Assembly: GCA_964416445.1 (NCBI GenBank)
Contig: CAYQEE010000001.1
Span: 1-63,811, forward strand
Reading direction: 5' to 3'
Length of the DNA stretch: 63,811 bases
Source: an uncultured Gammaproteobacteria bacterium
Lineage (GTDB): Bacteria > Patescibacteriota > Microgenomatia > Levybacterales > UBA12049
A program made the translations under genes and the position numbers. This document shows, in pieces, positions 11,549 to 63,811 of the stretch (position 1 is its first letter; every line of letters begins with the position of its first letter). Below the pieces are notes generated by a model that was given only the letters and a program-made list of their open reading frames with translations, was not told where the DNA came from and did not search any database.

Positions 11549-12313
11549 GTGAAAGAACCGCTTCTCTCTGTTGTAATTCCTTGTTTTGATGAGATAGCAA
11601 ATCTTCAAAAGGGTGTGCTCGATAAAGTGATCCATTATTTAGAGAGAAGAAATTATTCGTATGAAGTAATCGTAGTTGATGATGGTTCTCATGATGGGAG
11701 TATCGCATTTCTTAAAAAATTTGTTAAAGAGAATCCTCATTGTAAATTAATCGAAAATAGCCATCTCGGTAAAGCAGGAGCAGTAACTACCGGTATGTTA
11801 CAGGCCAGTGGTATCTATACCTTATTTACCGATATGGACCAAGCAACGCCAATTGAGGAAATAGAGAAATTACTTCCTTACTTTGAAAAAGGTTTTGATG
11901 TTGTTATTGGTTCTCGGAGTGATAAACGAAAGGGTGCACCTTGGACACGATTGATTATATCAAAAGGAATGATTGTGTTTCGCAAAGTTATTGTTGGGTT
12001 ACCGAATATAACTGACACGCAATGCGGATTTAAAATGTTTCGAAACGAAGCCTCTCAAAAACTTTTTAAGAAAATGTACAATCTGCATCATGGATTTGCC
12101 CATATATCAGGTTCAGCAGTCACTGCAGGATTTGATGTAGAACTTTTAATAATTGCGAAAATAATGGGTTATAAAATTAAAGAAGTTCCTGTTTCATGGC
12201 TGTTTGTAGAAACTCGGAGAGTAAATCTAATAAAGGACTCAATAGATGGACTCATTTATTTGTTGAAAATAAGACAAAATAAGTTAGCGGGGAAATATAA
12301 AAACGATATATGA
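11549..12313 (+). CDS. GT2 glycosyltransferase, DPM1/CsbB-like polyprenyl-phosphate sugar synthase
   Basis: LSVVIPCFDE, VIVVDDGSHDGS, DxD region FTDMDQATP, QCGFKMF; short (~254 aa) single-domain GT-A as in dolichyl/undecaprenyl-phosphate glycosyltransferases. Confidence 0.85.
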   Translation: MKEPLLSVVIPCFDEIANLQKGVLDKVIHYLERRNYSYEVIVVDDGSHDGSIAFLKKFVKENPHCKLIENSHLGKAGAVTTGMLQASGIYTLFTDMDQATPIEEIEKLLPYFEKGFDVVIGSRSDKRKGAPWTRLIISKGMIVFRKVIVGLPNITDTQCGFKMFRNEASQKLFKKMYNLHHGFAHISGSAVTAGFDVELLIIAKIMGYKIKEVPVSWLFVETRRVNLIKDSIDGLIYLLKIRQNKLAGKYKNDI

Positions 12314-13494
12314 AAAAGATAACAATCATTTCGTTTTTATATATCGTAATTATTCTTTTCCTTTTCTTTTATTCATACTCCCAAGTAGATTTAAGTTTGA
12401 CTCTTTCTCGTGCTTCAGTATTCCAATATGTTGAAAAATTATTCCAATACGTTGGCTATTTTAATCGTCCATTATCATCAGTATTTTATATTCTCTTGTT
12501 ACTCTTCCTCTATGGATTTTATATAGTTTTTCTCATTCTTGCGGATAAAAAAGTCATATCGTTGAAATTCTTATGGACTATTATTATTCTTACCGCCGGT
12601 ATTCTAACATTTTCTTATAATGCATTCTCCTATGATCTTTTTAACTATATTTTTGACGCAAAAATAGTTACTCATTATCATGTAAATCCTTATTTTTATA
12701 GAGCCTTAGATTTTCCCCATGATCCAATGCTTTCATTTATGCATTGGACACAGCGGACCTATCCGTATGGTCCACTGTGGCTATTTTTGACAGTGCCGCT
12801 TTCATTTATTGGATTCCAATACTTTTTAGTAACATTCTTTTTATTTAAAACATTTATCGCACTATGTTATGTCGGATGTGTCTATTTTTTATTGAAAATA
12901 TTACAAAGAATTAAACCATCAGAAGCGATGTTTGGAACTATGCTCTTTGCACTCAATCCGTTGGTTCTTATAGAAGCCTTAGTTTCCGCGCATAATGATA
13001 TTACTATGATGTTCTTTAGTATTCTTGCGCTATGGTATCTTCTTGAGAAGAAATCCTTCGTAAGCTATATGGCACTTCTTATTTCTGTTGGTACGAAATT
13101 TGCAACAGTTTTTCTTTTGCCAGTTTTTGTTTTTATTAGTTTTCTTTTTAGAAAAAATAAAAAAATCGATTGGCAATTTGTTTTTCTACTTTGCTCAATT
13201 TTTATGATTATTCCCATTATTCTTGCTTCCATGCGTACAAATTTCCAACCATGGTATTTGCTCTATGTTTTACCTTTCACTGCTCTTGTTGGCAAAAAAT
13301 ATTATGGAATTATTCCCTCTATAATAATGTCTTTCTTCTCGTTACTGCAATATGTTCCATTTCTCTATACAGGAAATTGGAACTCTCCCATTCCGTCAAT
13401 TTTATTTTGGTTGAATTTCTTGGGAATAATGCTTTCGGGACTCATTATGGCTTTCTATTTCCTTATAACAAAATTAGCCAAAAGAAACAAATAA
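12310..13494 (+). CDS. Polytopic membrane protein, DUF2029/MptB-like GT-C glycosyltransferase candidate
   Basis: About ten or more hydrophobic helices; loop motif AFSYDLFNYIFDAKIVTHYHVNPY and YPYGPLW resemble polyprenol-phosphate-mannose-dependent mannosyltransferase-like families; ATGA overlap with the GT2 gene. Confidence 0.6.
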   Translation: MKKITIISFLYIVIILFLFFYSYSQVDLSLTLSRASVFQYVEKLFQYVGYFNRPLSSVFYILLLLFLYGFYIVFLILADKKVISLKFLWTIIILTAGILTFSYNAFSYDLFNYIFDAKIVTHYHVNPYFYRALDFPHDPMLSFMHWTQRTYPYGPLWLFLTVPLSFIGFQYFLVTFFLFKTFIALCYVGCVYFLLKILQRIKPSEAMFGTMLFALNPLVLIEALVSAHNDITMMFFSILALWYLLEKKSFVSYMALLISVGTKFATVFLLPVFVFISFLFRKNKKIDWQFVFLLCSIFMIIPIILASMRTNFQPWYLLYVLPFTALVGKKYYGIIPSIIMSFFSLLQYVPFLYTGNWNSPIPSILFWLNFLGIMLSGLIMAFYFLITKLAKRNK

Positions 13495-13527
13495 AGGATA
13501 TCATGTTTGAGTTCCTTTCATTGGTAA

Positions 13528-13536
13528 TGCTACAAT
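13528..13536 (+). promoter_or_regulatory. Extended -10 (TGCTACAAT) 7 nt upstream of the ATG at 13544
   Basis: TGCTACAAT at 13528-13536, then AGAAGCA, then ATG; no SD. Confidence 0.4.
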
Positions 13537-13543
13537 AGAAGCA

Positions 13544-15064
13544 ATGAATCTTATGTTATTTATTAAGAAATATAGATTTGAAATATTTTTCAGTTTTATA
13601 TTCTTGATACTTTATTTTTTTCTCCGTTTTTATCATATCCTAAGTTTACCAATTTTTACTGACGAAGCGATCTATGTTCGATGGTCTGAAATTGCAAAGC
13701 AAGACGCGAATTGGCGATTTATATCGCTTACTGATGGAAAGCAACCAATGTTTGTATGGATCGCAATTTTATTTTTGCATGTGATACATGATCCGCTGCT
13801 TGCTGTTCGTCTCGTATCAGTATTTGCTGGTTTAGGAACAACTATTGGTTTGTTTTTTTTAGGAAGAGAATTATTTCAAAAAAGATGGATTGGACTTCTC
13901 TCATCAGCGTTGTATGTATTATTTCCCTTTGGACTTGTTTATGATCGGATGGCTATCTATGATAGTCTCGTTGCTATGTTTGCAGTATGGGGATGGTATG
14001 TAAGTATTCTTCTCGTACGGAAAGTGCGTTCTGATATTCCTTTTATATTAGGGCTTGTTCTTGGTGGTGGATTTTTAACGAAATCATCTAACTTTTTCAT
14101 TGGAGCCTTGCTTCCGGTTTCTTTGTTGCTCTTTGACTTTAAAAGGAAAGATGCTCGTTCTCGGTTTATTCAATGGATAGCGTATGCAATGCTTGCGATT
14201 GGTCTTGGAGTTCTCTATTATTCAGTCTTGCGGCTCTCTCCTTTCTATGCAATTATCTCTGAAAAAAATGCTATTTTTGTTTATCCGTTAAAAGAGTGGT
14301 TGCAACATCCTTTTGCTTTTTTTGAAGGGAATATTAAGGGACTTTTTGATTGGTTTATTACCTATGTGAAAATACCAATATTACTACTTATTCTTGGTTC
14401 ATTTTTCTTTATAAAAGAGCGATTACGAGAAAAGTTACTTGTACTCATTTGGTTTCTTGTACCTTTCTTATACCTTGCATTCTTTGGAAAAACGCTTTAC
14501 CCACGGTTTATTTTATTTATGACAGTGGGATTATTACCTTTAGCAGCATATACAATTTATAAAATACAGCTACTGGTTAAAAACATTTTTATTACAGGAT
14601 TTATTTTTTTGCTTCTTATGATTCCAAGTGTTCAGGCTGATTATTTTATTATTACAAATTTTGCGTATGCTCCGATACCAAAATCCGATTTAACACAATA
14701 TATCAATGATTGGCCTGCAGGGGGCGGTGTAAAAGAAGCTGTTGATTTTTTTCAACAGAAAGCACAACAGGGACATATTTATATTGGTACTGAAGGAACA
14801 TTTGGACTTATGCCTTATGGGCTGGAAATTTATTTAGTACAAAATCCAAATATAAAAATTCAAGGCATCTGGCCTATTCCTGATACTTTGCCAAAGTCAT
14901 TACTGGATGCAAGTAAAAAGATGCCGACCTATCTTCTTTTCTATCAACCATGTCCCTCATGTAGTGCGCCGGGAGAGGCGCCTAGCCAATGGCCATTAAC
15001 ATTAATTGCTCGGTATAAAAGGGGAATAGGGACTGCATACTTATCTATTTACCAAGTAAAATAA
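13544..15064 (+). CDS. ArnT/PMT-like (GT39/GT83-type) GT-C membrane glycosyltransferase
   Basis: Polytopic; first extracytoplasmic loop has LPIFTDEAIYVRW (acidic DE motif after TM1); large C-terminal soluble domain. Confidence 0.7.
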   Translation: MNLMLFIKKYRFEIFFSFIFLILYFFLRFYHILSLPIFTDEAIYVRWSEIAKQDANWRFISLTDGKQPMFVWIAILFLHVIHDPLLAVRLVSVFAGLGTTIGLFFLGRELFQKRWIGLLSSALYVLFPFGLVYDRMAIYDSLVAMFAVWGWYVSILLVRKVRSDIPFILGLVLGGGFLTKSSNFFIGALLPVSLLLFDFKRKDARSRFIQWIAYAMLAIGLGVLYYSVLRLSPFYAIISEKNAIFVYPLKEWLQHPFAFFEGNIKGLFDWFITYVKIPILLLILGSFFFIKERLREKLLVLIWFLVPFLYLAFFGKTLYPRFILFMTVGLLPLAAYTIYKIQLLVKNIFITGFIFLLLMIPSVQADYFIITNFAYAPIPKSDLTQYINDWPAGGGVKEAVDFFQQKAQQGHIYIGTEGTFGLMPYGLEIYLVQNPNIKIQGIWPIPDTLPKSLLDASKKMPTYLLFYQPCPSCSAPGEAPSQWPLTLIARYKRGIGTAYLSIYQVK

Positions 15065-16713
15065 TGAAGCATTTGTTCACTTATTATCTTCTTCTTATTA
15101 TTATCTCTTGTTTACCACTTGTTGGTATTTTTTCAACAAGTGAATTGTTGCATACGCACGATGGTTCAGCTCACCTAGCTCGAATCCCTGCATATTATAA
15201 AGCGATTCGTGATGGGGAATTTCCGGTACGTTGGGCAGGTGATCTTAATTTTGGTTATGGTATGCCTTTGTTTGATTTTATGTATCAAGTTCCGTATGCC
15301 ATTGCTACTTTTTTGATAACTATTGGATTCCATTTAGTAACAGCATATAAAATAACGCTTGCAGCAAGTTATCTCTTGGCTGGTATTACAATGTTTGCTT
15401 TCGCTTATGAATTCTTCGAAGATAAGAGAAAAGCTTTATGGGTAACGATATTTTATCAATTTGCTCCGTTTCGACTGATTGAATTATTAGTCCGAGGTGC
15501 TCTTGGGGAAGTGTATACGTATGCTTTTTTCCCCTTAGTTTTGTTTGGAATGATAAAACTTTGGAAAAGACCTACGTACGGAAATTTCTTTCTTACCGTT
15601 TTTGCATCTGCTCTGCTTATTCTATCTCATAATGCATTAAGTCTCGTATTTTTTGGAATTTGTGTAGGATTTCTTCTCTTATTTGGATTTACTAAAAAAA
15701 ACGTATTGCTTTCAGGATGTGCATTAGGTATGGGACTCATGATGACTTCATTTTATTGGTTACCTGCAATTTTTGAGCATAAATATACGTACGGCGATTT
15801 ATTTATGCAAAATTTGTATTTGCAACATTTCCCACCAATGCAAAATTTTTTTATTCCTAATTTTTTTAATCTACCTGCATTACAAACGAAGGGAATATCT
15901 GTGCAACTTGGATTATTTCATAGTATTACGATTCTACTGGCAATTATTATGCTATTTATGAAAAAAACAAAAAGAATAATTTCAACAAAACTTGTGGTTG
16001 CATCACTTTGTTTTTTGGTTATTCTTTTTTATTTTATGCAGCCAATATCGATAGGTTTTTGGGCACATAGTGCTTTATTACGTCAATTCCAATTTTCGTG
16101 GAGACTTCTTGGAATAGTCGCTTTTTTTACTTCCATGCTTTCAATTTGTTATTTTATATTTCCTTTTATGAAGAAACAATGGATGTATATTACCGTATTA
16201 TGCTTAGTTATAGGATCGACAGCATTTTATTGGATTCCACCGTTAGGGTATAACAAAGTCGATGAATCGTATTACTGGAATTTTCCTTTAACATCGACCT
16301 ATTTTGGAGAAACTGATGTAATTTGGTCAGCAGGTCCAGCGAAATCATATCCAAAACAGCGAGTAGAATTTATTAGTGGGGGAGGTGCAATATCACATTT
16401 TTCTAAAAAAACACAAACACAACGTTTTATTGTCAGTGCAAATGAACAATCACAGCTTGTTGATCATATTGAGTATTTCCCTGGATGGAGAGCATATGTG
16501 AATAACCATAATGTCCCAATACAATTTCAAGATCCAAATTGGCGCGGGCAATTAATATTTTCTGTACCGAAAGGAATAAGTTCAGTTGTCGTTTCATTTG
16601 GAGAAACGCCTCTTCGATTTATTACCGATATACTTTCAGTAATCGCGGTTATTATACTTTTGCTCCTCTGGTTATTTCGTAATCATTTTTTCTATGAAAA
16701 TAAAAAAAACTAG
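15064..16713 (+). CDS. 'PTPS-related' family polytopic membrane protein (GT-C-like, uncharacterised)
   Basis: N-terminal motif LHTHDGSAHLARIPAYYKAIRDGEFPVRWAGDLNFGYGMPLFDFMY, shared with 20732, 22248 and 63673; many TM helices; C-terminal YFPGW.AYV...VPKG module plus a terminal TM. Start overlaps the previous stop by 1 nt (TAATG). Confidence 0.65.
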   Translation: MKHLFTYYLLLIIISCLPLVGIFSTSELLHTHDGSAHLARIPAYYKAIRDGEFPVRWAGDLNFGYGMPLFDFMYQVPYAIATFLITIGFHLVTAYKITLAASYLLAGITMFAFAYEFFEDKRKALWVTIFYQFAPFRLIELLVRGALGEVYTYAFFPLVLFGMIKLWKRPTYGNFFLTVFASALLILSHNALSLVFFGICVGFLLLFGFTKKNVLLSGCALGMGLMMTSFYWLPAIFEHKYTYGDLFMQNLYLQHFPPMQNFFIPNFFNLPALQTKGISVQLGLFHSITILLAIIMLFMKKTKRIISTKLVVASLCFLVILFYFMQPISIGFWAHSALLRQFQFSWRLLGIVAFFTSMLSICYFIFPFMKKQWMYITVLCLVIGSTAFYWIPPLGYNKVDESYYWNFPLTSTYFGETDVIWSAGPAKSYPKQRVEFISGGGAISHFSKKTQTQRFIVSANEQSQLVDHIEYFPGWRAYVNNHNVPIQFQDPNWRGQLIFSVPKGISSVVVSFGETPLRFITDILSVIAVIILLLLWLFRNHFFYENKKN

Positions 16714-19105
16714 TTATCCGGTTATTGTTTTCTTACTCATAACGATTTTATTTTTCTATAAAACATTCATTCATGGTTATATACCATTTCCCGGTGATCT
16801 TCTTACTGCCGAATATAATCCTTGGAAATATTTTTCTTTCCTTGGTTATAGTCCAGGAAGTTACCCGAATAAAGGTCAATATTTTGACGTAATTCGTCAA
16901 ATTTATCCTTGGAAAACATTCACTATTGCATCTTTCCAAAAAGGACAAATTCCTTTCTGGAATCCTTATAATTTTTCAGGTACTCCATTATTAGCAAACT
17001 TTCAATCTGCTGTTTTTTATCCATTAAATGTCTTCTATTTTCTTATGCCACAAGTATTAGCATGGTCTCTTCTCATTTTTTTACAACCATTTCTCAGTGG
17101 AATTTTTACCTATTTTTTTGCTCGAGAAAAACGAATAACTCGAATAGGCAGTTATCTCTCAGGAGTGTCTTTTGCGTTTTGCTCATTTATGACTGTATGG
17201 TTGCAATATAATACGATCGATCAAGTTATTCTTTGGTTGCCATTACAATTGTTAAGCATAGAAAAGTTATTGATAAAACGATCAATCCCATGGATGATAC
17301 TCTTTATATTCTCACTGGTTGCTGAACAATTTGGGGGACACCCACAAATATTTATTTACTCATTTATCTTTTCTATTTTTTATATGTTTCATAGAATTAT
17401 TGCAACGAAAAAGAATCTGAAGAAACAAAAAATAGTTATATTTTTTATTTTACTTTCTGTTGTTGGGCTTGGAATTGGGTCGATACAAAATCTACCGGGA
17501 TTGGCTCTGATGCAACTTTCCGCCAGAAGTGCCCATACATATGCAGATATTATGTCTAAAATTCTTATTCAACCATGGCAACTCTTGATGTTAGTCGTTC
17601 CTGATATTTTTGGAAATCCCGCAACTCGTAACTACTGGTTATCGGATACCTATATAGGAAAAGTTACTTCAGTAGGATTAATCCCCTTTATTTTTTCTTT
17701 AGTAAGCATTACACAGATGCGTAAATCGATCATACGTTTTTTTTGGGGAGCATTATTCATAACCTTACTTTTGGCTACCAATAATCCTTTAACGGAATTT
17801 TTGTATTCCTTCCAAATACCATTTCTCTCTTCAAGTGCACCAACACTTGCTATTTTTATTTTTTGTTTTTGTTTGAGTATATTAGCGGGATATGGGGTGG
17901 ACGTTTTTAGAAGCAAACGCTTTACAACATTCCAAATTATTCTCTGGCTTTCGCCTATTCTCATAATATTTCTTGTTATTTTTATTTCGATAGCTTTAGA
18001 ATCGAGATTGGGTTTTTATGCGGGAAGTGATCATGCACGTATTGCTATGCATAATACGGTGTATGTTTTTTTTGTTTATATTATCTCCATAATATTACTC
18101 ATATTTGGAATGAAAAAGAAAAAAATATTAGTTCCAATACTGATATTATTAATAGTTATTCATCTTGGAGATGCATTTAAATCTTTTGAAAAATTTAATC
18201 CATTTGTTCCTCAGCAACTCGTATTTCCTCAGAATGATCTTTTTACCTACTTACAGCAGCATGCAGGTATAAATAGAATATGGAGTTTCGGTTCTGCACA
18301 GATAGAAGCAAATGTACAAACTCACTATCAGATCTTTTCTCCGGAAGGGTATGATCCTTTATATCCCAAATATTATGGCTCGTTTATACAATCATCTCAA
18401 AATGGGCAAATTATCACCCACTTTACTGATAGAACCCGATCAGATGCGAATATTGCTCCTGCTCAGTCTGAAAATTTCATGAGAAATACTGCTCGATTAA
18501 AAGTATTAAATCTTTTAGGTGTTAAATATTTCGCGGATACTATTGCGAATGGAAGTACTCAAAATACTTTTCCTCCTAGCGAATTCAAGAATATTTACCA
18601 TATAAATCAATGGAATGTTTATCAAAACGTTCAAGCTGTACCAAGAACATTTCTTGCCACCGATTATGTAACCTATGCTTCAGCGAACGATTTCTCAAAA
18701 AAGTTTTTTGCTTCAACATTTCATCCGCAAAATACCATTTTGCTTGAAAAAAAGCTTTCAACAAAGTTGAACGCTTCGAAGAAAGAACTTTTCATAATTG
18801 ATTATTCTGCAAATAAGGTACGCCTTATGAGTAAGACGAATGGTTCTGCGTTGCTTTTTCTTTCAGATACCTATTACCCTGATTGGCAGGCAACGATTGA
18901 TGGGAAACCTGTGCAAATATTACGGGCTGATTATGCGTTTCGCGCAATTCTTGTTCCAAAAGGAAACCACCAAGTAAGCTTTACATTTTCGAGTTCATCT
19001 TTTAAGATAGGTAGTATCATCTCGTTCATGAGTATGCTCACATTGATTGCTTGGTTATTTTCTCTCTACATAGGCAATCTGGGGAAAGCATATGCTAAAA
19101 AATAA
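16694..19105 (+). CDS. YfhO family membrane glycosyltransferase (GT-C)
   Basis: YfhO hallmarks: IRQIYPWK, GQIPFWNPYNFSGTPLLANFQSAVFYPLN, about 800 aa, many TM helices, C-terminal YYPDWQATIDGKPV..RADYAFRAILVPKGNH plus a terminal TM. Confidence 0.88.
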   Translation: MKIKKTSYPVIVFLLITILFFYKTFIHGYIPFPGDLLTAEYNPWKYFSFLGYSPGSYPNKGQYFDVIRQIYPWKTFTIASFQKGQIPFWNPYNFSGTPLLANFQSAVFYPLNVFYFLMPQVLAWSLLIFLQPFLSGIFTYFFAREKRITRIGSYLSGVSFAFCSFMTVWLQYNTIDQVILWLPLQLLSIEKLLIKRSIPWMILFIFSLVAEQFGGHPQIFIYSFIFSIFYMFHRIIATKKNLKKQKIVIFFILLSVVGLGIGSIQNLPGLALMQLSARSAHTYADIMSKILIQPWQLLMLVVPDIFGNPATRNYWLSDTYIGKVTSVGLIPFIFSLVSITQMRKSIIRFFWGALFITLLLATNNPLTEFLYSFQIPFLSSSAPTLAIFIFCFCLSILAGYGVDVFRSKRFTTFQIILWLSPILIIFLVIFISIALESRLGFYAGSDHARIAMHNTVYVFFVYIISIILLIFGMKKKKILVPILILLIVIHLGDAFKSFEKFNPFVPQQLVFPQNDLFTYLQQHAGINRIWSFGSAQIEANVQTHYQIFSPEGYDPLYPKYYGSFIQSSQNGQIITHFTDRTRSDANIAPAQSENFMRNTARLKVLNLLGVKYFADTIANGSTQNTFPPSEFKNIYHINQWNVYQNVQAVPRTFLATDYVTYASANDFSKKFFASTFHPQNTILLEKKLSTKLNASKKELFIIDYSANKVRLMSKTNGSALLFLSDTYYPDWQATIDGKPVQILRADYAFRAILVPKGNHQVSFTFSSSSFKIGSIISFMSMLTLIAWLFSLYIGNLGKAYAKK

Positions 19106-20735
19106 ATACGCAGTTATTTCCATTTATTTCATTATTATTGTTCTTGCAATTTTTCTACGAGTATATCGCTTGTCTGATATTCCACCCGGTGTGAACCGAG
19201 ATGAAGCAGATATAGGTTTTACCGCAAGTTCATTGCTGCATACAGGTAAAGATGAATATGGACGCGCGTTTCCACTTTCATTTCAATCATTCGGCGATTG
19301 GAAACTTCCTATCTATATTTATGAAACAGTGATTTCAGTTTCTGTTTTTGGGTTAAACACGTTTGCGGTAAGAATTCCATCGGCGATTGCTGGAATTATT
19401 ACTGTCGCACTTGCATTCTTTCTTTTTCAAGAATTATTTCATAAAAAGAAACTATCTTTGCTTGCTATGCTGCTTTTTGCAATTGCTCCTTGGAGTTTGC
19501 ATTTATCTCGTGTTGAATCTGAATCAAATACCGCTGTATTATTTGTAGTTTTAGGCACCTTATTATTTATGAAAGCTCGAAAAGGAAAGTCATGGATGTT
19601 TATTCCTGCGGCTATTTTGTTTTCCTTAACATATTTTACTTATGCGGGGAATTATATCTTTACAACGCTCTATGTGATAGGACTTGCTCTTTTTTATTAT
19701 AAAGATATTCCTAAAACAAAATATTTATTAAGCGCGGTGGGAATTTTTATTATTATGAGTATTTTTATTGGAGTTGTGACTTTAGGTGCTAATCATACAA
19801 AACTTGCAGGGATAGGTATTCTGAGTGATCCTTCAATTGTTCATGCAAAAATAGAGATACCTCGAAACGAACATACAAATCCAAATTCGTTTCTCGCGAG
19901 ACTGGTAAATAATCGAGTAGTATTTGTTGGCGAACGGTTTCTTCAGAATTATATAAATTCATATTCTGCGAATTTTTTGTTTATTAATGGAGGAACAAAT
20001 CATGCACATAACATTGAAAATTTCGGCAATATGTATCTTATTGAATCAATCTTTCTTTTTTTAGGATTAGTTTTTTTAATAACGCTGCAGAGAGGTACAG
20101 GGAGAAAATTAGTATTGTGGTGGTTTTTTATAGCACCTTTAGCAGCAAGTATCACAAAAGATGCTCCTCATACAAATAGAACCGCCGCTATTATTCCCAT
20201 GCTTCCTCTCATAGTGGCATTTGGAATTTTTTGGTTTGTCTCGTTCACGAAGAAAAGATATCTGCAGTACCTTTTCAGTGGAATTATTGTATTGTTGTTT
20301 TTTGTCAATTTTTGTATATATCTAGATCAATATTATGTTCTTTTTCCAAGAAATGAAGCGCAATATTGGGGAAAGCCATATCAAGACCTCAGTGTAATAC
20401 TCTCGAAATCTAAGTACAGTAAAAAGCATATCATCATGAGTCAACCTGAAACGTCTCCCTATATTTATTTGATGTTTTATGAAAATTATGATCCAAAATC
20501 TTTTCAGCATTCTGTCGTTCGCTACCCAATAACTTCTGATGGTTTTATTAACGTTAAATCATTTGGCAGATACGAATTTCGAACCATAGACTGGACAAAA
20601 GATCTTCATACTTCGAATAATTTACTGATCGATGTTACAGAAAATGTTTCGCAGTCAATACGGAATGATTATAAAACAACAGATATTATACTTCCTTCTC
20701 AACAACAAATATTTACTATCGTGGAAACAAAATGA
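19092..20735 (+). CDS. PMT/ArnT-like (PMT_2-type, GT39-like) GT-C membrane glycosyltransferase
   Basis: PPGVNRDEADIGFTASSLLHTGKDEYGRAFPL..FGDWKLPIYIY after TM1; APHTNRTAAIIPMLP motif; paralog of 58503, 60191 and 61987. Confidence 0.8.
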   Translation: MLKNKYAVISIYFIIIVLAIFLRVYRLSDIPPGVNRDEADIGFTASSLLHTGKDEYGRAFPLSFQSFGDWKLPIYIYETVISVSVFGLNTFAVRIPSAIAGIITVALAFFLFQELFHKKKLSLLAMLLFAIAPWSLHLSRVESESNTAVLFVVLGTLLFMKARKGKSWMFIPAAILFSLTYFTYAGNYIFTTLYVIGLALFYYKDIPKTKYLLSAVGIFIIMSIFIGVVTLGANHTKLAGIGILSDPSIVHAKIEIPRNEHTNPNSFLARLVNNRVVFVGERFLQNYINSYSANFLFINGGTNHAHNIENFGNMYLIESIFLFLGLVFLITLQRGTGRKLVLWWFFIAPLAASITKDAPHTNRTAAIIPMLPLIVAFGIFWFVSFTKKRYLQYLFSGIIVLLFFVNFCIYLDQYYVLFPRNEAQYWGKPYQDLSVILSKSKYSKKHIIMSQPETSPYIYLMFYENYDPKSFQHSVVRYPITSDGFINVKSFGRYEFRTIDWTKDLHTSNNLLIDVTENVSQSIRNDYKTTDIILPSQQQIFTIVETK

Positions 20736-39491: not shown

Positions 39492-39525
39492 AAAATCCGC
39501 TTTAAAAGAGCGGATTTTATTTTTC
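39492..39525 (+). terminator. Rho-independent terminator
   Basis: 9-bp stem AAAATCCGC (39492-39500) / GCGGATTTT (39510-39518), 9-nt loop, followed by ATTTTT. Confidence 0.75.
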
Positions 39526-39627
39526 TCTATTGACAATTGTATTATATTAATTCACGATAATAATAACTTCTAACCTCTCTGCCTAAGGTTATAAATAGAG
39601 TGTGTTAGACAAAAGGAGGTGAATACA

Positions 39628-39723
39628 ATGGCTGCCAAAAAATCAACAAAGAAAGCAGTAAAAAAGGCTGCTCCAAAAGGAATCAAGTTACCAGGGAAAA
39701 AAGTTATTTCAAAAAAACGATAA
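39628..39723 (+). CDS. 31-aa highly basic (AKK-rich, histone-H1-tail-like composition) small protein (ORF C; not in ORF track)
   Basis: Perfect SD AAGGAGGTGA at 39613-39622, 5 nt before the ATG; MAAKKSTKKAVKKAAPKGIKLPGKKVISKKR (13/31 K+R, no acidic residue); followed by a strong terminator. Confidence 0.65.
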   Translation: MAAKKSTKKAVKKAAPKGIKLPGKKVISKKR

Positions 39724-39737
39724 ATTTGTAATGACTT

Positions 39738-39772
39738 TAAAAAAAGAACCCGTCTTAGACGGGTTCTTTTTC
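39738..39772. terminator. Bidirectional Rho-independent terminator between convergent genes
   Basis: A-tract 39738-39744, stem AGAACCCGT (39745-39753) / ACGGGTTCT (39759-39767), T-tract 39768-39771; the minus-strand NHL gene stop is at 39774-39776. Confidence 0.8.
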
Positions 39773-39773
39773 G

Positions 39774-54499: not shown

Positions 54500-56911
54500 A
54501 TGTTAAATAAAAAAAGAAATGTATTTTCTTTGCTACTGTTATTCATTATTTGTCTGTTGTTATTTTGGCGTTTTTTCTTCAAGAATGAATTCCTTTTTCC
54601 TGGAAATTATTTAATAGCATTTTTTAGTCCTTATCAGTCATATAATAGCGTTCCAATTAGTAATAAACCTGTTGCTGATGATGTTTTTCGGCATATATAT
54701 ACCTTCAAAGTTTTAGCAGTTGATATGATGAAAAACCTTCATCTGCCACTGTGGAATCCTTATAATGGTGCTGGTATGCCTTTACTGGCTACGTTAAATA
54801 GTGGATTTTTGGATCCTTTTAATATACTTTTTTTTATTTTCCCGTATGCAAATGCGTGGAATATTTATTTATTTTTGCAATTTCTTCTTATTGGTCTGTT
54901 TACTTATTTATATTCCCGTAGTATTGGACTTTCCCAACAAGCTGCTTTATTTGCCTCTATTTCCTTTCTTTTTTCAGGTTTTGTTATTGCGCGGGTAAGT
55001 TTAGGTGCATATGGATTAGGAATAGCACTTTTACCATTATTCCTTTTTCTTATTGAACGGTATAGATCTCAGAAAAACTGGAAGATTTTCGGAATTATCA
55101 GTATCGTCGTTTTTTCGGTTATTGTTTCAACCCATCCGCAGATATCATTTTATATTTTGACGACGAGTTGTATTTATTTTGTATGCAGACTACTAACGCA
55201 AAAAGAAAACAGAATTACAAAATTTCTATCATTGAGCTTGTTTATCTTTTTTGTTCTTATGGGTATCGGATTAGCGGGTGTGCAACTTGTTCCTACATTA
55301 GAGTTGATACAATATGCAAATTTGAATGCAGATAAAAGTTTTATAGGAAATTATATTGTGCCGCTGTATCATCTTGTTTCAGTTGTTGTCCCAAATTATT
55401 TTGGTAATGTAAGTACTTATAATTATTGGGGAAAAACAGATTACTTAGAAACAGTCGTTTCCATTGGATCGATCCCAGTTTTATTTGCTTTTTTTGGATT
55501 TCTTGCTGTCTTAACAAGTGGATATAAAAAAATGATTGCGAGTTTCTACCTCATTTTACTTACTCTTTCATTAGCGCTTGCAATTAACTCTCCAATAACA
55601 GACTTGTTTAGCCGTTTTCCGATCCCATTACTTACTACTGATCCGCCTTCTCGCATTTTTTTACTTTCGACATTCTCAATAAGTATTCTTGCTGGATTAG
55701 GATACGAGTATATAACTCATCCTCTCACTTCTTTTAAAAAAATGTCTCTGTTTATTGCCCCGTATTTGTTGCTGATAGTTACTATTGATCTAATTACCTT
55801 TCATAACAAAATAGTCCATTTGCCTTGTCGAATATCGTCATTTGCTTGCTATGATATAGCATTTCGAAATACGGTATTCGAGAGTATTTTTTTCGTTATA
55901 ATGCTTATGATTCTTTTTGGTGCAGTAATTGTGAAAAGTAAAAAAATTGTAATCGTTAGTATTGTACTTGTTATTACAACTGGATTATATAATGCTGATA
56001 AATTTCTTCCATTTTCATCTCAAAATACCATATTACCTAAAAATTCTTTATTTCTAGAATTATCACAACTGAGTAATAAAGGGAGAGTTTTTGGGTTTGG
56101 AAAAGCAATGATAACAACAAATCTTGCTACATATTTTCGCTTTTATGATCCAGAATATTATCACCCACTCTACATTAAACGATATGGTGAATTAACAGGA
56201 TATACAAATACCGGGATGCCTGGACATGGCGTAGTCCGTGCTGATGCGATTATAAATAACCCAGTGATAATTCCGACTATAGATGCAATGCGAAGAGATC
56301 GATTTTTTACCTTATTGAGCGTACGATATCTCATTTATAATAAGCTTGATGTAATTAAAAATACTCAAAAAACCAATATCATTTGGCAAGATAACAAAAA
56401 TTATATAACTGAAAATAAATTCGCACTTCCTCATGCATATCTTGTTTCTCAATATCAAAAAGTAAGTTCACCAAAGGGTGAGTTACAAAAGCTTTTCCTG
56501 CCAGAATTTAATCCCTTTGTGAATGTATTATTAGAAAAAGAGCCATTGCATTTTGAAAATAACAGTAAGCCAATTGGTCATATTTTAATTACGAGTTACA
56601 AAGAAAATAATATCACCATAACTGCGAATACACAGAATCAAAGTTTGTTAGTACTAACAGATAATTATTATCCAGGTTGGAAAGCATTTATAGATAAAAA
56701 AAATACTGAAATTTATCGAGCAAATTATACATTTCGGGCTATCGTCCTTCCTTCGGGGAATCATGTAGTGAATTTTGTTTATGATCCATTATCTGTAAAA
56801 AGCGGCGAACTTATAAGTAGCATATCACTGATAATTTTGTTTCTATTAATGACTTTTTCTTTGTTGCGTAAATTCTTGTTTTATCAAAAAAATATATTTA
56901 AAATACGGTAA
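54500..56911 (+). CDS. YfhO family membrane glycosyltransferase (GT-C), subfamily 2
   Basis: FRHIYTFK, HLPLWNPYNGAGMPLLATLNSGFLDPFN, YDPEYYHPLYIKRYGEL, C-terminal YYPGWKAFIDKKNTEIYRANYTFRAIVLPSGNH plus a terminal TM. Confidence 0.88.
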   Translation: MLNKKRNVFSLLLLFIICLLLFWRFFFKNEFLFPGNYLIAFFSPYQSYNSVPISNKPVADDVFRHIYTFKVLAVDMMKNLHLPLWNPYNGAGMPLLATLNSGFLDPFNILFFIFPYANAWNIYLFLQFLLIGLFTYLYSRSIGLSQQAALFASISFLFSGFVIARVSLGAYGLGIALLPLFLFLIERYRSQKNWKIFGIISIVVFSVIVSTHPQISFYILTTSCIYFVCRLLTQKENRITKFLSLSLFIFFVLMGIGLAGVQLVPTLELIQYANLNADKSFIGNYIVPLYHLVSVVVPNYFGNVSTYNYWGKTDYLETVVSIGSIPVLFAFFGFLAVLTSGYKKMIASFYLILLTLSLALAINSPITDLFSRFPIPLLTTDPPSRIFLLSTFSISILAGLGYEYITHPLTSFKKMSLFIAPYLLLIVTIDLITFHNKIVHLPCRISSFACYDIAFRNTVFESIFFVIMLMILFGAVIVKSKKIVIVSIVLVITTGLYNADKFLPFSSQNTILPKNSLFLELSQLSNKGRVFGFGKAMITTNLATYFRFYDPEYYHPLYIKRYGELTGYTNTGMPGHGVVRADAIINNPVIIPTIDAMRRDRFFTLLSVRYLIYNKLDVIKNTQKTNIIWQDNKNYITENKFALPHAYLVSQYQKVSSPKGELQKLFLPEFNPFVNVLLEKEPLHFENNSKPIGHILITSYKENNITITANTQNQSLLVLTDNYYPGWKAFIDKKNTEIYRANYTFRAIVLPSGNHVVNFVYDPLSVKSGELISSISLIILFLLMTFSLLRKFLFYQKNIFKIR

Positions 56912-56941: not shown

Positions 56942-58420
56942 CTATTTTTTGGAATAGATTTTATAAGGGGGCTCCTGATAAACTAATCTGTAGTTTTTGG
57001 ATATTTCGTCTTTTATTTTTTGTGGTAACCAAGCTTCCGCAAATGGTTCAAGAAGAATGGTTTGACTTTTATAAATGATTGATTGGTATTCTTGAACAGG
57101 TAAGTTAGTGCCTGTTACTCGAATAATTCTCATATTTGCACAGTCATAAAAGAACGGTATATTTTTTTGAGCATATAATGCATAAATTGGTTCAAAAGTA
57201 AACAGTGGCTCCGGGAGTCGTTTTAACTTTCGTACAATAGTAAAAAATTGAGGTGTTTTGTTGGCAATAAGATAGAAATAAAGAGATGGAGCGGCAGTAA
57301 GAGTAACTAAGTAGAGAAGAAGTAACATGACAGTAGTATTTTTGATAGTAAATTTATTCCAAAAATGATTAAAGAAAAAACCACTACTTATTGCAAATGG
57401 TACGCCTATTATTGAAAGATAATGTGGGTAAAATGATTTCCCAGCAAATATACATATCAAGAATGTTATAAAACTAAAAACTGCAAATTGCCAATGAGTC
57501 TTTCTTAGCAAGAATATTCCCCAAAAGCCGAACAGAAATATCGGCCAATTCATAGGGAGAATTTGCAGTAGTATATAAAAACGATTTAGGTATGAAACAA
57601 AGTATGTTTGGGAGATTATGAAATTATGAAAACTATTTGGAATGAGGAGAATTATAAAATACGATGTGAAACTTAATACAAAATAAATTGTATAGTTGTT
57701 CCAAATCGTTTTACAGAACATGCGTATCTGTAATCGTGATTTAATAAGATTGATGGTTAGGATAGAAAGTAGAGCAATGAGCAAATTACTTACTAAACAG
57801 AATGAAAACAACCAGAGAAAAACTTGCGCTAATAGTTTTCTTTTTTTAACGCAGGTAAAGTAAATAAAGAAAGCTAAAAAAGGTAATGAGGTTTCACGAA
57901 TCGCAAAGAAATGGGCGTCCCACTGTGTAAATTCAACAAATGTCGAAAAGATAAAAATACTGAAAATTCCTGCATTTCTATTTTTTGTTAAGTAAATAGT
58001 TATAGAATAGAGAGGAAATAATGAAATAAAAACCCACATAATGTACATATAATCAAAGAGGGGAATGTTGAAATGGTATAATCGTAAAAAAATACTGAGA
58101 AGATACTGAAGAAATGGAGTATGTCCTGCGAGATTGAAATCTTTATAGGGAATATATCCCTGAGCTAATAGCTTTGCTTCGTAAAGATATATTCCTTCAT
58201 CAGTTTGCGGATATACTATTTTATTAATGCCATAACTTTGAAGAAATATATTTGCGAGATAGAAACAAATAAAAATACTATTATTTTTGAGCAATTGATA
58301 GAATTTAGGTACCTTAAATTTGTAATGTAAATTAAACATCACGTTAATAAAGTATACAATGTTATCTTTCGTTGAATAAAGTATAAATGAGAATTTCTTA
58401 TAAAAAGCAAGTAATTTCAC
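56942..58420 (-). CDS. ArnT-like GT-C polytopic membrane glycosyltransferase candidate
   Basis: GTG start with SD AGGAGA 10 nt upstream; loop-1 YPQTDEGIYLYEAKLLAQGYIPYKDF; many TM helices. Confidence 0.6.
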   Translation of the reverse strand: MKLLAFYKKFSFILYSTKDNIVYFINVMFNLHYKFKVPKFYQLLKNNSIFICFYLANIFLQSYGINKIVYPQTDEGIYLYEAKLLAQGYIPYKDFNLAGHTPFLQYLLSIFLRLYHFNIPLFDYMYIMWVFISLFPLYSITIYLTKNRNAGIFSIFIFSTFVEFTQWDAHFFAIRETSLPFLAFFIYFTCVKKRKLLAQVFLWLFSFCLVSNLLIALLSILTINLIKSRLQIRMFCKTIWNNYTIYFVLSFTSYFIILLIPNSFHNFIISQTYFVSYLNRFYILLQILPMNWPIFLFGFWGIFLLRKTHWQFAVFSFITFLICIFAGKSFYPHYLSIIGVPFAISSGFFFNHFWNKFTIKNTTVMLLLLYLVTLTAAPSLYFYLIANKTPQFFTIVRKLKRLPEPLFTFEPIYALYAQKNIPFFYDCANMRIIRVTGTNLPVQEYQSIIYKSQTILLEPFAEAWLPQKIKDEISKNYRLVYQEPPYKIYSKK

Positions 58421-61957: not shown

Positions 61958-61966
61958 TGATAGAAT
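61958..61966 (+). promoter_or_regulatory. Extended -10 (TGATAGAAT) upstream of paralog 3
   Basis: TGATAGAAT at 61958-61966, 20 nt upstream of the ATG at 61987. It overlaps the TTG (61957) used by the ORF track, which argues against that start. A second TGGTAGAAT lies at 61893-61901. Confidence 0.4.
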
Positions 61967-61986
61967 CTTATAAAATTACAAAAAAC

Positions 61987-63660
61987 ATGAAAATTACGAT
62001 TTACTCAGTGTTATTTTTTTTAATATTTTTACTTGCTGTTTTTTTCCGTTTGTACAATATTTCATCTGTCCCACCAAGCCCTTCTCTTGATGAAGTAACC
62101 ATAGGATATAATGCTTATTCAATATTACAAACTGGAAGAGACGAGTATGGTTACTATCTTCCTATTCTTCTACGCGCCTATGATGATTACCGGCCGGCAT
62201 TATATGTTTATTTAGTTATACCCTTCATTAAATTATTTGGATTACAAGTCGTTGCGGTTCGTTTACCTTCTGTCATCTTATCATTGATAACCGTGGTATC
62301 AACGTATTTTTTAGTAAAAGAACTTACCAAAAAATACCAATACGGTAAAGTAGTTGCGTTATTAAGTATGTTTCTCTTAGCAGTTTCACCTTGGCATATT
62401 TACATTTCACGACTTGGTCATGAGGCAAATGCAGGTGCAACATTTATTGTCTTAGGCGCTCTTTTCTTTCTCTATAGTGTTAATAATTTTGGGAAGCGAT
62501 GGTTCATCATGCTCTCTGCACTCTTTTATAGTTTATCTTTTTATACATATCAAAGTGAGAAAGTTTTTACTCCGTTAATCGTTATTTGTCTCATATTGTT
62601 ATATTGGAGAAAGATATTTGTTATTCGGAAAGAAGCGGGAGTCGCATTAGTACTAGCTTTTCTTATTACAGTACCAATCTTTCGAGCATCGTTAACTCCC
62701 GATGCAATGTTACGATTAAAAGGAACTTCAGCATTCACAAATATGGATCAACTCTCTCTACAAAATGCACACCAATTACTTGTTGATAAAAAGCAATCAA
62801 ATTACTTTGCAATAATAATTGATAATCGGAGACTTATTCCAGTAAAGATATTTTTCACTAATTATTTTGCTCATTTTAATCCATATTGGTTAATAGCAAA
62901 TATTGGGAATAATGGTAAAGAAGAATTTAAAATTCCATCAATCGGACTTTTTTATTTTTGGGAATTACCATTTTTTATCCTTGGCTTATTATTTTTATGG
63001 CTGAGTAATTTACAGAAAAAAGAAAAATTTCTCCTACTGATATGGTTCTTATTTGCTTTTATCCCTCCCAGTATTGCTACAGGAGCACCACATGCTATGC
63101 GATCTTATAATATTCTTCCCGTACCACAAATTATTGAGGGTTTTGGTATTTTGGGGGTATTTCTGTTATTGTCAAAGCAAAAGCATATTGTTCTGAGAAT
63201 AGAAAAAATTTTACTTGGATTTCTTTTCGTGTTACTTGTTGGATATTCATTAGTTTCTTTAACGCTTAATTACTTTTATGTCTTTCCCAAAATAGAGTCA
63301 GAACCTTATCAGTACGCTCTTTTTCAAGCGTTTACTTATTTAGTAAAAAATAATAACTCATCGAAACCTGTTATTGTTGGAATAAGAAATAATCTGTTTG
63401 AATCCTATATGTTTTATTTGTTTGTGAGTCATTATAATCCCTCCTTATATTTAAAGCATGGTGGAACTGTTTCAGGTGGATTCGCGGAGGAACATAGAAT
63501 AGGGAACATATCATTTCATCCAATCAACTGGGATAATAGCAAAAAAATACCTAACGCAATCTATATTGGTAATCCCGCATCATTTCCAGAAAGTATAGAG
63601 TCATACAAGAATTTTTATTATTTAGACGGAACACTTGGTGTAAAAATCGTAAAGACGTGA
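61987..63660 (+). CDS. PMT/ArnT-like (PMT_2-type) GT-C membrane glycosyltransferase, tandem paralog 3
   Basis: PPSPSLDEVTIGYNAYSILQTGRDEYGYYLPILLRAYDDYRPALYVY; GAPHAMRSYNILP. The ATG at 61987 (MKITIYSVLFF..) is preferred over the TTG at 61957. Confidence 0.8.
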   Translation: MKITIYSVLFFLIFLLAVFFRLYNISSVPPSPSLDEVTIGYNAYSILQTGRDEYGYYLPILLRAYDDYRPALYVYLVIPFIKLFGLQVVAVRLPSVILSLITVVSTYFLVKELTKKYQYGKVVALLSMFLLAVSPWHIYISRLGHEANAGATFIVLGALFFLYSVNNFGKRWFIMLSALFYSLSFYTYQSEKVFTPLIVICLILLYWRKIFVIRKEAGVALVLAFLITVPIFRASLTPDAMLRLKGTSAFTNMDQLSLQNAHQLLVDKKQSNYFAIIIDNRRLIPVKIFFTNYFAHFNPYWLIANIGNNGKEEFKIPSIGLFYFWELPFFILGLLFLWLSNLQKKEKFLLLIWFLFAFIPPSIATGAPHAMRSYNILPVPQIIEGFGILGVFLLLSKQKHIVLRIEKILLGFLFVLLVGYSLVSLTLNYFYVFPKIESEPYQYALFQAFTYLVKNNNSSKPVIVGIRNNLFESYMFYLFVSHYNPSLYLKHGGTVSGGFAEEHRIGNISFHPINWDNSKKIPNAIYIGNPASFPESIESYKNFYYLDGTLGVKIVKT

Positions 63661-63672
63661 TTAATTACAGAA

Positions 63673-63811
63673 ATGAAATATATTTTATTTTTCATGTTTC
63701 TTCTCCTTTCTCTCATGAGTGTTCTCAATCTTTTTCAAAATGGTTACCCACTTACACATGATGGAGATGTTCATTTATTACGATTAACAAATTTTTCCCA
63801 GAATATCAATG
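63673..63811 (+). CDS. 'PTPS-related' family membrane protein, N-terminal fragment (3' end cut by window edge)
   Basis: MKYILFFMFLLLSLMSVLNLFQNGYPLTHDGDVHLLRLTNFSQNIN: TM1 followed by the THDG..H..R motif shared with 15064, 20732 and 22248. Confidence 0.6.
   Translation, partial: MKYILFFMFLLLSLMSVLNLFQNGYPLTHDGDVHLLRLTNFSQNIN

Follow-up and report, generated by a model that had tools for sequence, protein, structure and literature searches.

A conserved GT-C-rich gene cluster of Microgenomates bacteria with a probable role in assembling an envelope glycan

What would lead a bacterium of the candidate phyla radiation (CPR) to commit half of a stretch of more than 60 kb to membrane glycosyltransferases? 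The usual picture of CPR bacteria, or Patescibacteria, is one of lost polysaccharide metabolism and of little remaining biosynthesis (for example PMC7137472). The question is raised by contig CAYQEE010000001.1 of assembly GCA_964416445.1, whose 63,811 nt, taken as a whole, are called the window here. A first-pass annotation of this DNA had recognized nineteen genes for large polytopic proteins of the glycosyltransferase (GT) superfamily GT-C and had read them as a very elaborate, combinatorial surface-glycosylation system. The analysis presented below upholds the gene set and gives it a different meaning: the cluster is a conserved, lineage-defining locus of the Microgenomates, not a genome-specific island. 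Our preferred reading, to which we give a probability of about 0.6, is that the window contains most of a super-operon for an envelope glycan, conserved across this CPR group, in which specialized GT-C enzymes form an assembly line. Genes are named below by their first coordinate, with (-) marking the reverse strand; their positions are collected in Table 1.

The window is tiled by 39 open reading frames (ORFs) of at least 150 amino acids, and ORFs were found at all 19 coordinates that had been named beforehand for GT-C genes. Their summed length of 31,947 nt, equal to 50.07% of the window, agrees with the earlier estimate of ~31.9 kb, or half; the share is ~49.9% after correction of two starts, to 58339 for 56942(-) and to 61987 (TTG to ATG) for the gene first placed at 61957, which is called 61987 throughout. 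A crude Kyte-Doolittle scan gives 6–12 hydrophobic segments for each of the 18 full-length proteins, all of them polytopic; members of the GT-C superfamily are typically polytopic, with 8–13 transmembrane (TM) helices. Fourteen of the nineteen genes exceed the gathering threshold (GA) of a Pfam family within GT-C: YfhO (PF09586) in 16694, 28873, 32598, 49507(-) and 54500 (64–113 bits, GA 28.5), PMT or PMT_2 in 13544, 19092, 44118, 58503, 60191 and 61987, PTPS_related in 20732 and 22248, and GT87 in 45612 (26.3 bits, GA 25). Pfam thereby bears out the five YfhO assignments and the PMT_2-type and PTPS-related families named at the outset. The N-terminal PMT domain (PF02366) scores 23–45 bits, against a GA of 22.7, in 13544, 19092, 58503 and 60191. 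In the PMT-type genes, Pfam covers this N-terminal domain of ~200 residues, with no further Pfam domain reported for a C-terminal 4TM module or for the MIR domains of the eukaryotic enzymes, and no full-length similarity to characterized Pmt enzymes was found. The remaining five genes (15064, 12310, 51935(-), 56942(-) and 63673) are tied to the superfamily by paralogy, profile comparison, predicted models or recovery of the full-length gene. The last of these, gene 19 at 63673, is cut by the end of the window; the complete protein, of 541 residues, is encoded on L083, a contig that overlaps the window, and is 30% identical to 15064 (E 6e-77). Since unrelated, non-GT-C genes follow it on that contig, the GT-C run ends there.

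The sequence motifs expected of GT-C enzymes are also in place. What defines the superfamily is a catalytic Asp in the first long loop outside the membrane, and its members all use lipid-phosphate-activated sugar donors (PMC10265970). As first described, the dipeptide DE follows the first TM helix in 19092, 58503, 60191 and 61987, and it is likewise present in 13544 and 56942(-), while the PTPS-related group carries (H/D)D(G/D) motifs, in the forms HDG, DDG, HDD and HDG. A single Asp, D65, is invariant across the five YfhO paralogues; D34 is invariant in the alignment of the 51935 family, and in the 56942 family D47 is invariant, with D47, E48 and G49 all invariant or nearly so. The acidic loop-1 motif is less evident in 12310 and 45612.

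The fold itself was tested by structure prediction for two proteins, 56942(-) and 51935(-), and by hidden Markov model (HMM) or profile similarity for the other 17. Neither of the two modeled proteins has a Pfam or NCBIfam match. Their AlphaFold2 models are helical bundles of at least 11 long helices each. For 56942(-), whose true length is 465 residues (P0001), the model has a pLDDT of 87.8, and the top 37 Foldseek matches in the PDB are all GT-C-fold proteins, comprising STT3, PglB, ArnT (TMq 0.63), DPY19, ALG12, AftA, Pmt4 and PimE, plus PIG-U, a subunit of the glycosylphosphatidylinositol (GPI) transamidase; in profile comparison with hhalign, it matches the 13544 family at 96.9%. An assignment of 56942(-) as an oligosaccharyltransferase was considered and rejected, as only the TM core resembles STT3 and PglB and the consensus of the family lacks a WWDYG-type motif. 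The model of 51935(-) (pLDDT 93.8) is closest to ALG6 (TMq 0.65), followed by other matches that include ALG3, GPI mannosyltransferase I, ArnT and PIG-U; 25 of its top 26 matches have the GT-C fold (enzymes and PIG-U), the exception being rank 2, which was not assigned. Homologues of this protein are titled ‘Gpi18-like mannosyltransferase’, and some have PIG-U, GT87 or PMT_2 matches. Sequence searches of the PDB with the YfhO profile, 58503 and 13544 gave no match (for the latter two, none at E<=0.01), so that statements about the closest structure refer to the two predicted models only. All 19 are confirmed as GT-C-type proteins. Transporters and other non-GT membrane proteins are excluded, since HMM, profile and fold evidence all point to GT-C. 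No GT-C or GT2 protein of the window reaches a curated NCBIfam cut-off.

The first-pass annotation had counted at least four families. The named families are real, but BLAST and hhalign arrange them better as three deep groups. The largest unites YfhO and PTPS-related proteins (nine genes). The second is ArnT/PMT_2-like (seven genes) and consists of the tight DE group 19092/58503/60191/61987 together with 13544, 44118 and 56942(-), whereas the third is GT87/ALG-like (12310, 45612 and 51935(-)). In the first group, 15064 is a full-length paralogue of 20732 (E 7e-41) and 22248 (E 1e-37), and its profile matches the YfhO group at 98.5% (hhalign); the three PTPS_related proteins have in common with YfhO both the N-terminal TM core (98.5% in hhalign) and the C-terminal ~100 residues, which contain the final TM helix. 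These three look like short YfhO-type enzymes without most of the large extracytoplasmic domain. In the third group, the profile of 12310 matches the families of 51935 (97.8%) and 45612 (95.8%), and its score against the NCBIfam MptA model (TIGR03459) is 38 bits (E 7e-10), with a cut-off of 439. Paralogues in the window are 24–41% identical, mostly 24–37% (30–37% for pairs within the tandem 58503/60191/61987), which argues that they are not recent copies. A possible exception is the closest pair, 49507(-) and 54500, at 41% identity; their scores against orthologues (667 and 541 bits) bracket their score against each other (552 bits), which fits a more recent duplication.

Is this density of GT-C genes peculiar to one genome? 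A scan with the YfhO alignment, in which each GTDB species was represented by a single genome, yielded at least 564 relatives. Nearly all of the top 80 lie in metagenome-assembled genomes (MAGs) of Microgenomates, with identities of up to 46%. They belong to the Levy-, Gottesman-, Chisholm-, Woese-, Davies- and Curtissbacteria, and their near-complete contigs measure ~0.6–1.2 Mb. The suggestion that the window comes from a CPR organism is well founded; it is a Microgenomates bacterium of a Levy-/Gottesmanbacteria-like type, the best YfhO relatives being those of Levybacteria, Gottesmanbacteria, Chisholmbacteria, Woesebacteria and similar groups. In 79 related loci, chosen by their YfhO homologue and assigned to taxa from record titles, GT-C homologues make up 52.8% of the DNA (1.26 Mb; ORFs searched with the GT-C proteins of the window). 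Among the 43 loci of at least 15 kb, the medians are 6 GT-C genes and 48% coverage, and a Gottesmanbacteria contig (MFJV01000001.1) holds 14 in 30.4 kb.

Gene order is conserved along with gene content. A collinear series runs 11549-12310-13544-15064-16694-19092-20732-22248-23956-Wzx, then 26264-27191-28102-28873-31537-32598, then 42437-43394-44118-45612 and finally 58503-60191-61987, and it is repeated in overlapping loci of different genomes (L005, L008, L009, L012, L038, L050, L069 and L070), with rearranged versions in Gottesmanbacteria (L004, L041 and L072). For most genes, the orthologue scores higher than any paralogue in the window. Among the locus ORFs with 28873 as their best match, 33 of 34 are clear orthologues; the corresponding figures are 44 of 50 for 32598, 33 of 34 for 22248 and 17 of 22 for 20732, and for these four genes assignment is unambiguous. 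Because ~53% of the DNA in related loci is GT-C and the order of genes is collinear, the cluster is not an island, and the original description as such does not hold; that relatives would routinely show this density was the outcome that the first-pass annotation had itself named as refuting its view. Nor is ‘combinatorial’ favored: one-to-one orthologues that are closer than paralogues in the same window suggest fixed, specialized steps, and together with the fixed order they favor a sequential assembly line over interchangeable decoration.

Homologues of 51935(-) and 56942(-) sit elsewhere in other genomes, alone or in small GT-C groups. In ~20 kb around them, no other homologue of the GT-C proteins of the window was found (four control loci, representing two genomic regions). 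The super-cluster is therefore a true cluster, not the product of a uniform genome-wide density. In one such locus (L087, 7283–13107), a 56942-family gene belongs to a separate small group whose other members include a GT-C of the DIE2_ALG10 family and two proteins (499 and 569 residues) that have no annotation, so relatives carry more GT-C families outside the super-cluster. An assembly artefact is ruled out by the collinearity with other genomes and by recovery of the window sequence on contigs independently assembled from SRR12266071, SRR12266072 and SRR12266074.

The survey also turned up irregularities of labeling. The Microgenomates-type cluster occurs in dozens of MAGs that serve as GTDB representatives and bear the title ‘uncultured Gammaproteobacteria/Pseudomonadales bacterium’ (binchicken/SRP*_co* isolates). 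Among them are L005, L009, L050 and L066, in which the cluster is collinear with that of Levybacteria, and OZ246397.1 is a complete chromosome of 615 kb; the names look like placeholders or wrong labels. Microgenomates-type YfhO homologues were also seen in a Pacearchaeota MAG (L019), an Armatimonadota MAG (L082) and Saccharibacteria (L077). For the contigs binned to an archaeon or to a non-CPR phylum, mis-binning or horizontal transfer is possible.

The cluster spans ~53 kb and combines 19 GT-C genes with three candidate donor synthases in a conserved arrangement; its scale and organization are unusual, as are the dominance of YfhO and PTPS-related enzymes and the divergence of its GT-C proteins. 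From 9947 to 31281, the genes are co-directional, separated by gaps of at most 97 nt and in numerous cases overlapping, a packing that fits a single long transcription unit. GC content is uniform at 32–36% throughout the cluster and reaches ~40% in one part of the window, around 255–5840. All the genes are intact. Neither the cluster nor its insertions are flanked by mobile-element genes or tRNAs, the sole tRNA of the window being that at 7680–7756.

Where would the sugar donors come from? The cluster encodes eight soluble GTs, seven GT2 and one GT4, none of which has TM segments. Three of the GT2 proteins (11549, 23956 and 43394), of ~240–254 residues, have the dolichol-phosphate mannose synthase (DPMS) of Pyrococcus as their best solved relative. 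For 11549, the PDB match to DPMS (5MLZ, E 4.5e-14) is followed by GtrB and ArnC, and the best NCBIfam models are PgfS and ArnC, far under their cut-offs. The best NCBIfam models for 23956 are Dol-P hexose transferase, AglJ and ArnC; 43394 matches GtrB and ArnC after DPMS in the PDB, and AglJ (118 bits) and PpgS (72 bits) in NCBIfam. Each of the three adjoins GT-C genes, with gaps of -20 to +6 nt, and the stop of 11549 overlaps the start of 12310. In P0034, a natural fusion of 690 residues, a GT-C of the 56942 family and a DPMS-like GT2 (E 2e-29 to 5MLZ) form one polypeptide, a ‘Rosetta-stone’ arrangement indicating that donor synthase and GT-C are functionally linked. The adjacent DPMS/GtrB/ArnC-like GT2 genes and this fusion are indirect signs that the GT-C enzymes of the window may use polyprenyl-phosphate sugars. 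The Wzx/MOP-family flippase at 24703 also matches NCBIfam models for a MOP flippase (139 bits) and an O-glycosylation flippase (103 bits), and the other four GT2 proteins and the GT4 resemble ordinary cytoplasmic transferases, 27191 being rhamnosyltransferase/GlfT1-like by NCBIfam. Upstream and divergent from the cluster lies a LytR-CpsA-Psr (LCP) gene, 8834(-), which scores 113 bits against the NCBIfam LCP domain (cut-off 62.3) and 116 bits against a TagU-like model; it is a candidate for the final attachment step.

Assembled into a pathway, these parts would operate as follows. On the inner side of the membrane, soluble GT2 and GT4 enzymes would assemble a polyprenyl-linked oligosaccharide, which Wzx would then carry across. 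Up to three different sugars would be loaded onto polyprenyl phosphate by the three DPMS-like enzymes, and the resulting lipid-linked sugars would be brought to the outer face by some flippase. Outside, the glycan would be extended by specialized GT-C enzymes, each responsible for a residue or linkage of its own, and the LCP enzyme may then join the product to peptidoglycan. Some paralogues, chiefly in an accessory insertion, may O-glycosylate proteins instead. This possibility is suggested by a Ser/Thr-rich secreted protein encoded beside GT-C genes, and by the activity of YfhO-family enzymes in streptococci, which glycosylate Ser/Thr-rich disordered protein regions (PMC12041528).

Several points weigh against this reading. 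The donors, the acceptors and the order of steps are ones that we infer, and a polysaccharide acceptor is not proven, because YfhO-family enzymes also glycosylate proteins (PMC12041528). The TM helices found at the C terminus of GtrB and DPMS are missing from the DPMS-like GT2 proteins, which lie far under every NCBIfam equivalog cut-off. No GtrA-type flippase was found among ORFs of at least 60 residues in the window, where all small ORFs overlap large genes, and Pfam identified neither a priming phosphoglycosyl transferase (WecA/TagO or Bac_transf type) nor a Wzy polymerase in the window. The adjacency of the LCP gene is known from this window only, as related loci stop short of its position. 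The ABC-2 pair 9947/10764 (9947–11507, +), which heads the co-directional array, was considered as a polymer exporter of the TagGH/Wzm-Wzt type and rejected: it is DrrAB-like, just under the NCBIfam subfamily cut-offs, and was not seen beside the cluster in related loci. Finally, the share of ~53% describes the cluster and not whole genomes, because the loci were picked by their YfhO homologue.

Only two segments, 35069–42266 and 46885–58420, are specific to the window and absent from collinear relatives, and only these look like variable accessory content. The genes of the former are missing between the orthologues of 32598 and 42437 in L008, L009 and L050. It begins with genes for a membrane-anchored NAGPA-like phosphodiester glycosidase and a polysaccharide deacetylase (35069–37299, +), which hint that sugar-phosphate-linked or N-acetylated residues are trimmed outside the cell. 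The latter contains a DUF5060-dockerin protein, a hydrolase and four GT-C genes, namely the YfhO genes 49507(-) and 54500, 51935(-) and 56942(-). The DUF5060-dockerin protein, 46885(-), has a Ser/Thr/Pro-rich linker (‘SIPEPTPSPTLGTTTTPLPSTTSTPSPTQS’) from about residue 590, is encoded directly beside 49507(-) and 51935(-) and has no homologue in related loci; it is a possible O-glycosylation substrate. At the start of the window (255–5840, +), an ORF of 1861 residues with 26% Ser+Thr, no Pfam match and no predicted TM segment may encode a giant surface protein and a further possible substrate. It is followed by a secreted GH5 cellulase (5892–7427, +) and a tRNA-Glu(CTC) (7680–7756, -), situated where GC content drops from ~40% to ~35%, just upstream of the LCP gene.

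Table 1. Annotated features of the window in order of position
Feature	Coordinates	Strand	Basis
LCP (LytR-CpsA-Psr) glycopolymer-to-peptidoglycan ligase	8834..9877	-	Pfam LytR_cpsA_psr 135 bits; one N-terminal TM segment
TM-less GT2, candidate polyprenyl-phosphate sugar synthase A, head of module 1	11549..12313	+	Pfam GT2
GT-C, GT87/MptA-like, 10 TM	12310..13494	+	GT87 19 bits (below GA); precomputed MptA_B_family match
GT-C, ArnT/PMT_2-like, loop-1 ‘TDEAIY’	13544..15064	+	PMT_2 49.8 bits, PMT 23.4 bits
GT-C, PTPS-related group, HDG motif	15064..16713	+	PTPS_related 20.7 bits (below GA)
GT-C, YfhO family	16694..19105	+	YfhO 113 bits
GT-C, PMT/PMT_2 group, DE motif ‘NRDEADIG’	19092..20735	+	PMT 33 bits, PMT_2 31 bits
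GT-C, PTPS-related, DDG motif	20732..22261	+	PTPS_related 31 bits
GT-C, PTPS-related, HDD motif	22248..23975	+	PTPS_related 41 bits
TM-less GT2, candidate polyprenyl-phosphate sugar synthase B	23956..24696	+	sole PDB match DPMS 5MLZ, E 4.4e-13
Wzx/MOP-family flippase, putative lipid-linked oligosaccharide	24703..26166	+	Polysacc_synt_3 168.7 bits; 11 TM
Three cytoplasmic GT2s	26264-27187, 27191-28105, 28102-28854	+	Pfam GT2, no TM; kept in 41-45 related loci
GT-C, YfhO family, core orthogroup	28873..31281	+	YfhO 75.8 bits
Cytoplasmic GT4 (GT-B)	31537..32601	+	Glycos_transf_1 48.6 bits; kept in 44 loci
GT-C, YfhO family, core orthogroup	32598..34895	+	YfhO 64 bits
Insertion 1	35069..42266	.	secreted NAGPA-like phosphodiester glycosidase, polysaccharide deacetylase, MsbA-type ABC exporter, NHL-repeat surface protein (Pfam)
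Cytoplasmic GT2	42437..43390	+	Pfam GT2 83.9 bits; kept in 48 loci
TM-less GT2, candidate polyprenyl-phosphate sugar synthase C	43394..44116	+	DPMS 5MLZ E 3.5e-17, residues 1-232
GT-C, PMT_2/ArnT-like	44118..45608	+	PMT_2 29.9 bits; hhalign 96.8% to 13544 family
GT-C, GT87 family	45612..46850	+	GT87 26.3 bits
Secreted DUF5060 + dockerin protein, first gene of insertion 2	46885..49476	-	Pfam
GT-C, YfhO family, accessory	49507..51945	-	YfhO 107 bits; 41% identity with 54500
GT-C, ALG6/ALG3/PIG-M-like (GT-C_B type)	51935..53275	-	predicted model and homologues
GT-C, YfhO family, accessory	54500..56911	+	YfhO 69.9 bits
GT-C, ArnT/STT3-like fold, loop-1 ‘TDEGIYLY’	56942..58339	-	predicted model, hhalign
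GT-C, PMT/PMT_2 DE-motif group, three in tandem	58503-60185, 60191-61831, 61987-63660	+	Pfam PMT/PMT_2 above GA
GT-C gene 19, PTPS-related, HDG motif, truncated by window end	63673..63811	+	46-residue stub

Could the whole cluster serve proteins instead of a glycan polymer? Protein O-glycosylation has precedents in actinobacterial Pmt and in streptococcal PgfS/PgfM1/PgtC2. The PMT- and YfhO-like GT-C enzymes would then move polyprenyl-phosphate sugars onto Ser/Thr-rich secreted or surface proteins, a reading to which the above-threshold PMT domain in four genes, the Ser/Thr-rich acceptors of the streptococcal YfhO enzymes and the two Ser/Thr-rich candidate substrates described above all lend some weight. 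The YfhO paralogues also match the C-terminal region of PgfM1/PgfM2, and PgfS is the best model for 11549; yet the PgfM1/2 matches amount to 21–56 bits over ~80 C-terminal residues, against cut-offs of 1400–1500, PgfS lies far under its own cut-off, and no sequence match to a solved Pmt was obtained. The conserved core includes no candidate substrate protein, surface proteins being restricted to window-specific insertions, while its Wzx and five soluble GTs point to a lipid-linked oligosaccharide. Nineteen specialized enzymes also far exceed the number in known systems of this kind. As the main function of the cluster, protein O-glycosylation is therefore unlikely, though it keeps a real share of the probability.

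A second possibility is that the locus is a variable island for combinatorial surface decoration, with interchangeable GT-C genes gained and lost rapidly, for example for phage escape or host matching. The two insertions, one with four GT-C genes, the rearranged Gottesmanbacteria clusters, and the pair 49507(-)/54500, whose orthologue scores are near the pair score, are what such an island would be expected to leave. The remainder of the cluster behaves otherwise: most paralogues are only 24–37% identical and have better-scoring orthologues, in the same order, in other Microgenomates candidate phyla, and the uniform GC content, the intact genes and the absence of flanking mobile elements or tRNAs add to the case, making a variable island improbable. 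The slimmest chance is left to a membrane-anchored lipoglycan of the lipomannan (LM) or lipoarabinomannan (LAM) type, in which the GT-C enzymes would extend a glycolipid in the cytoplasmic membrane. It draws on the match of 12310 to mycobacterial MptA and MptA_B_family, on 45612 as a member of GT87, the PimE/MptA-type family, on the resemblance of 51935(-) to GPI mannosyltransferase I and ALG3, and on the DPMS-like donor synthases. All matches to the mycobacterial enzymes, however, lie far under the family cut-offs, no PimA/PimB-like candidates for the initiation of a glycolipid anchor turned up, and the adjoining LCP gene and core Wzx fit polyprenyl-PP-linked precursors ligated to peptidoglycan.

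An envelope glycan built by a relay of GT-C enzymes, the reading preferred here, finds counterparts in several known systems. Its logic is that of arabinogalactan and LM assembly in mycobacteria and of N-glycan precursor extension in the lumen of the endoplasmic reticulum, both compared below. Among the other counterparts are the multi-component transmembrane glycosylation systems (CsbB/GtcA/YfhO, GtlA/GtlB, CsdAB/CD/EF and GacI/GacL), in which a GT-A stands beside a GT-C of YfhO or PMT_2 type: the GT-A makes a polyprenyl-P-sugar, which is flipped and moved by the GT-C to an extracytoplasmic acceptor. In Gram-positive bacteria, sets of a GT-A C55-P-sugar synthase, a flippase (GtrA or Wzx) and a GT-C decorate wall polymers, and the GT-A may be without a membrane anchor of its own (PMC8035078). 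The known systems are pairs, with three GT-A/GT-C pairs each in B. subtilis and L. lactis (PMC8035078), whereas here three candidate donor synthases accompany 19 GT-C genes in one cluster, a scaled-up version, and a Wzx/MOP flippase is present but no GtrA gene, nor was any gene for the synthesis of teichoic acids seen in the window.

The assembly of arabinogalactan and LM/LAM in mycobacteria and corynebacteria (AftA-D, EmbA-C, MptA/B, PimE, the donors decaprenyl-phosphate arabinose (DPA) and polyprenyl-phosphate mannose (PPM), and Lcp1) has parallels here in the MptA-like and GT87 matches, a GlfT1-like GT2 and an LCP enzyme. In that system, a glycan begun in the cytoplasm is elaborated outside the membrane by multiple specialized GT-C enzymes, one after another (PMC10265970). 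Unlike that system, the window has no match to the Emb/Aft (Arabinose_trans) family, its similarity to MptA is remote (38 bits, with 439 required), the organism, a monoderm CPR bacterium, has a genome of ~1 Mb and is not an actinobacterium, and YfhO/PTPS-related enzymes dominate. Lipid-linked oligosaccharide extension in the lumen of the endoplasmic reticulum (ER) and in archaea (DPM1/ALG5, an RFT1-type flippase and ALG3/9/12/6/8/10) likewise combines DPMS-like GT2s, cytoplasmic GTs, a MOP flippase and a GT-C relay; the model of 51935(-) is best matched by ALG6, ALG3 and GPI mannosyltransferase I, and 43394 resembles archaeal AglJ and DPMS. No oligosaccharyltransferase was identified in the window, however, and the resemblance is structural and organizational, not one of orthology. 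The streptococcal Pgf and GtrB-PgtC2 systems share YfhO GT-C enzymes and a GT2 lipid-sugar synthase with the window, where a Ser/Thr-rich secreted protein is encoded beside two GT-C genes, but the PgfM1/PgfM2/PgfS matches are partial and far under cut-offs, and the conserved core has no substrate gene.

A bolder proposal can be put forward only tentatively, with the odds leaning against it. It would see in the locus an ancient collinear super-operon of 45–55 kb (~3% of a genome of ~1 Mb, a size estimated from relatives), in which 14–19 specialized GT-C enzymes, supplied by three lipid-sugar synthases of DPM1-like type, make a complex envelope glycan almost wholly on the outer membrane face. 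The system would then be an independent bacterial counterpart of arabinogalactan and of ER-lumenal N-glycan assembly, and its glycan a defining structural or host-attachment feature of this CPR class.

How new is the system? All of its proteins belong to known superfamilies, and the chemistry is that of known lipid-carrier-dependent extracytoplasmic glycosylation. The open-access literature on glycosyltransferases of CPR bacteria and Microgenomates was found to contain no description of the cluster, in keeping with the earlier suspicion that the system is undescribed. The cluster is thus robust and apparently undescribed, yet lineage-wide and, by analogy with the systems above, interpretable in mechanism.

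For the biology of these organisms, a conserved block of more than 50 kb, half of it given over to lipid-carrier-dependent glycosyltransferases, runs counter to the reduced-polysaccharide picture of CPR bacteria and points to an elaborate surface glycan kept by selection. In episymbiotic uncultured bacteria, the cell surface is the site of host recognition, and the cluster is accordingly a target for lectin- or antibody-based enrichment, cryo-electron tomography and envelope chemistry. It is also a reservoir of highly divergent GT-C enzymes, three groups of which, queried by sequence, have no solved relative. The gene order, with three donor synthases each beside a set of GT-C genes, provides a testable map of enzyme-donor pairing.

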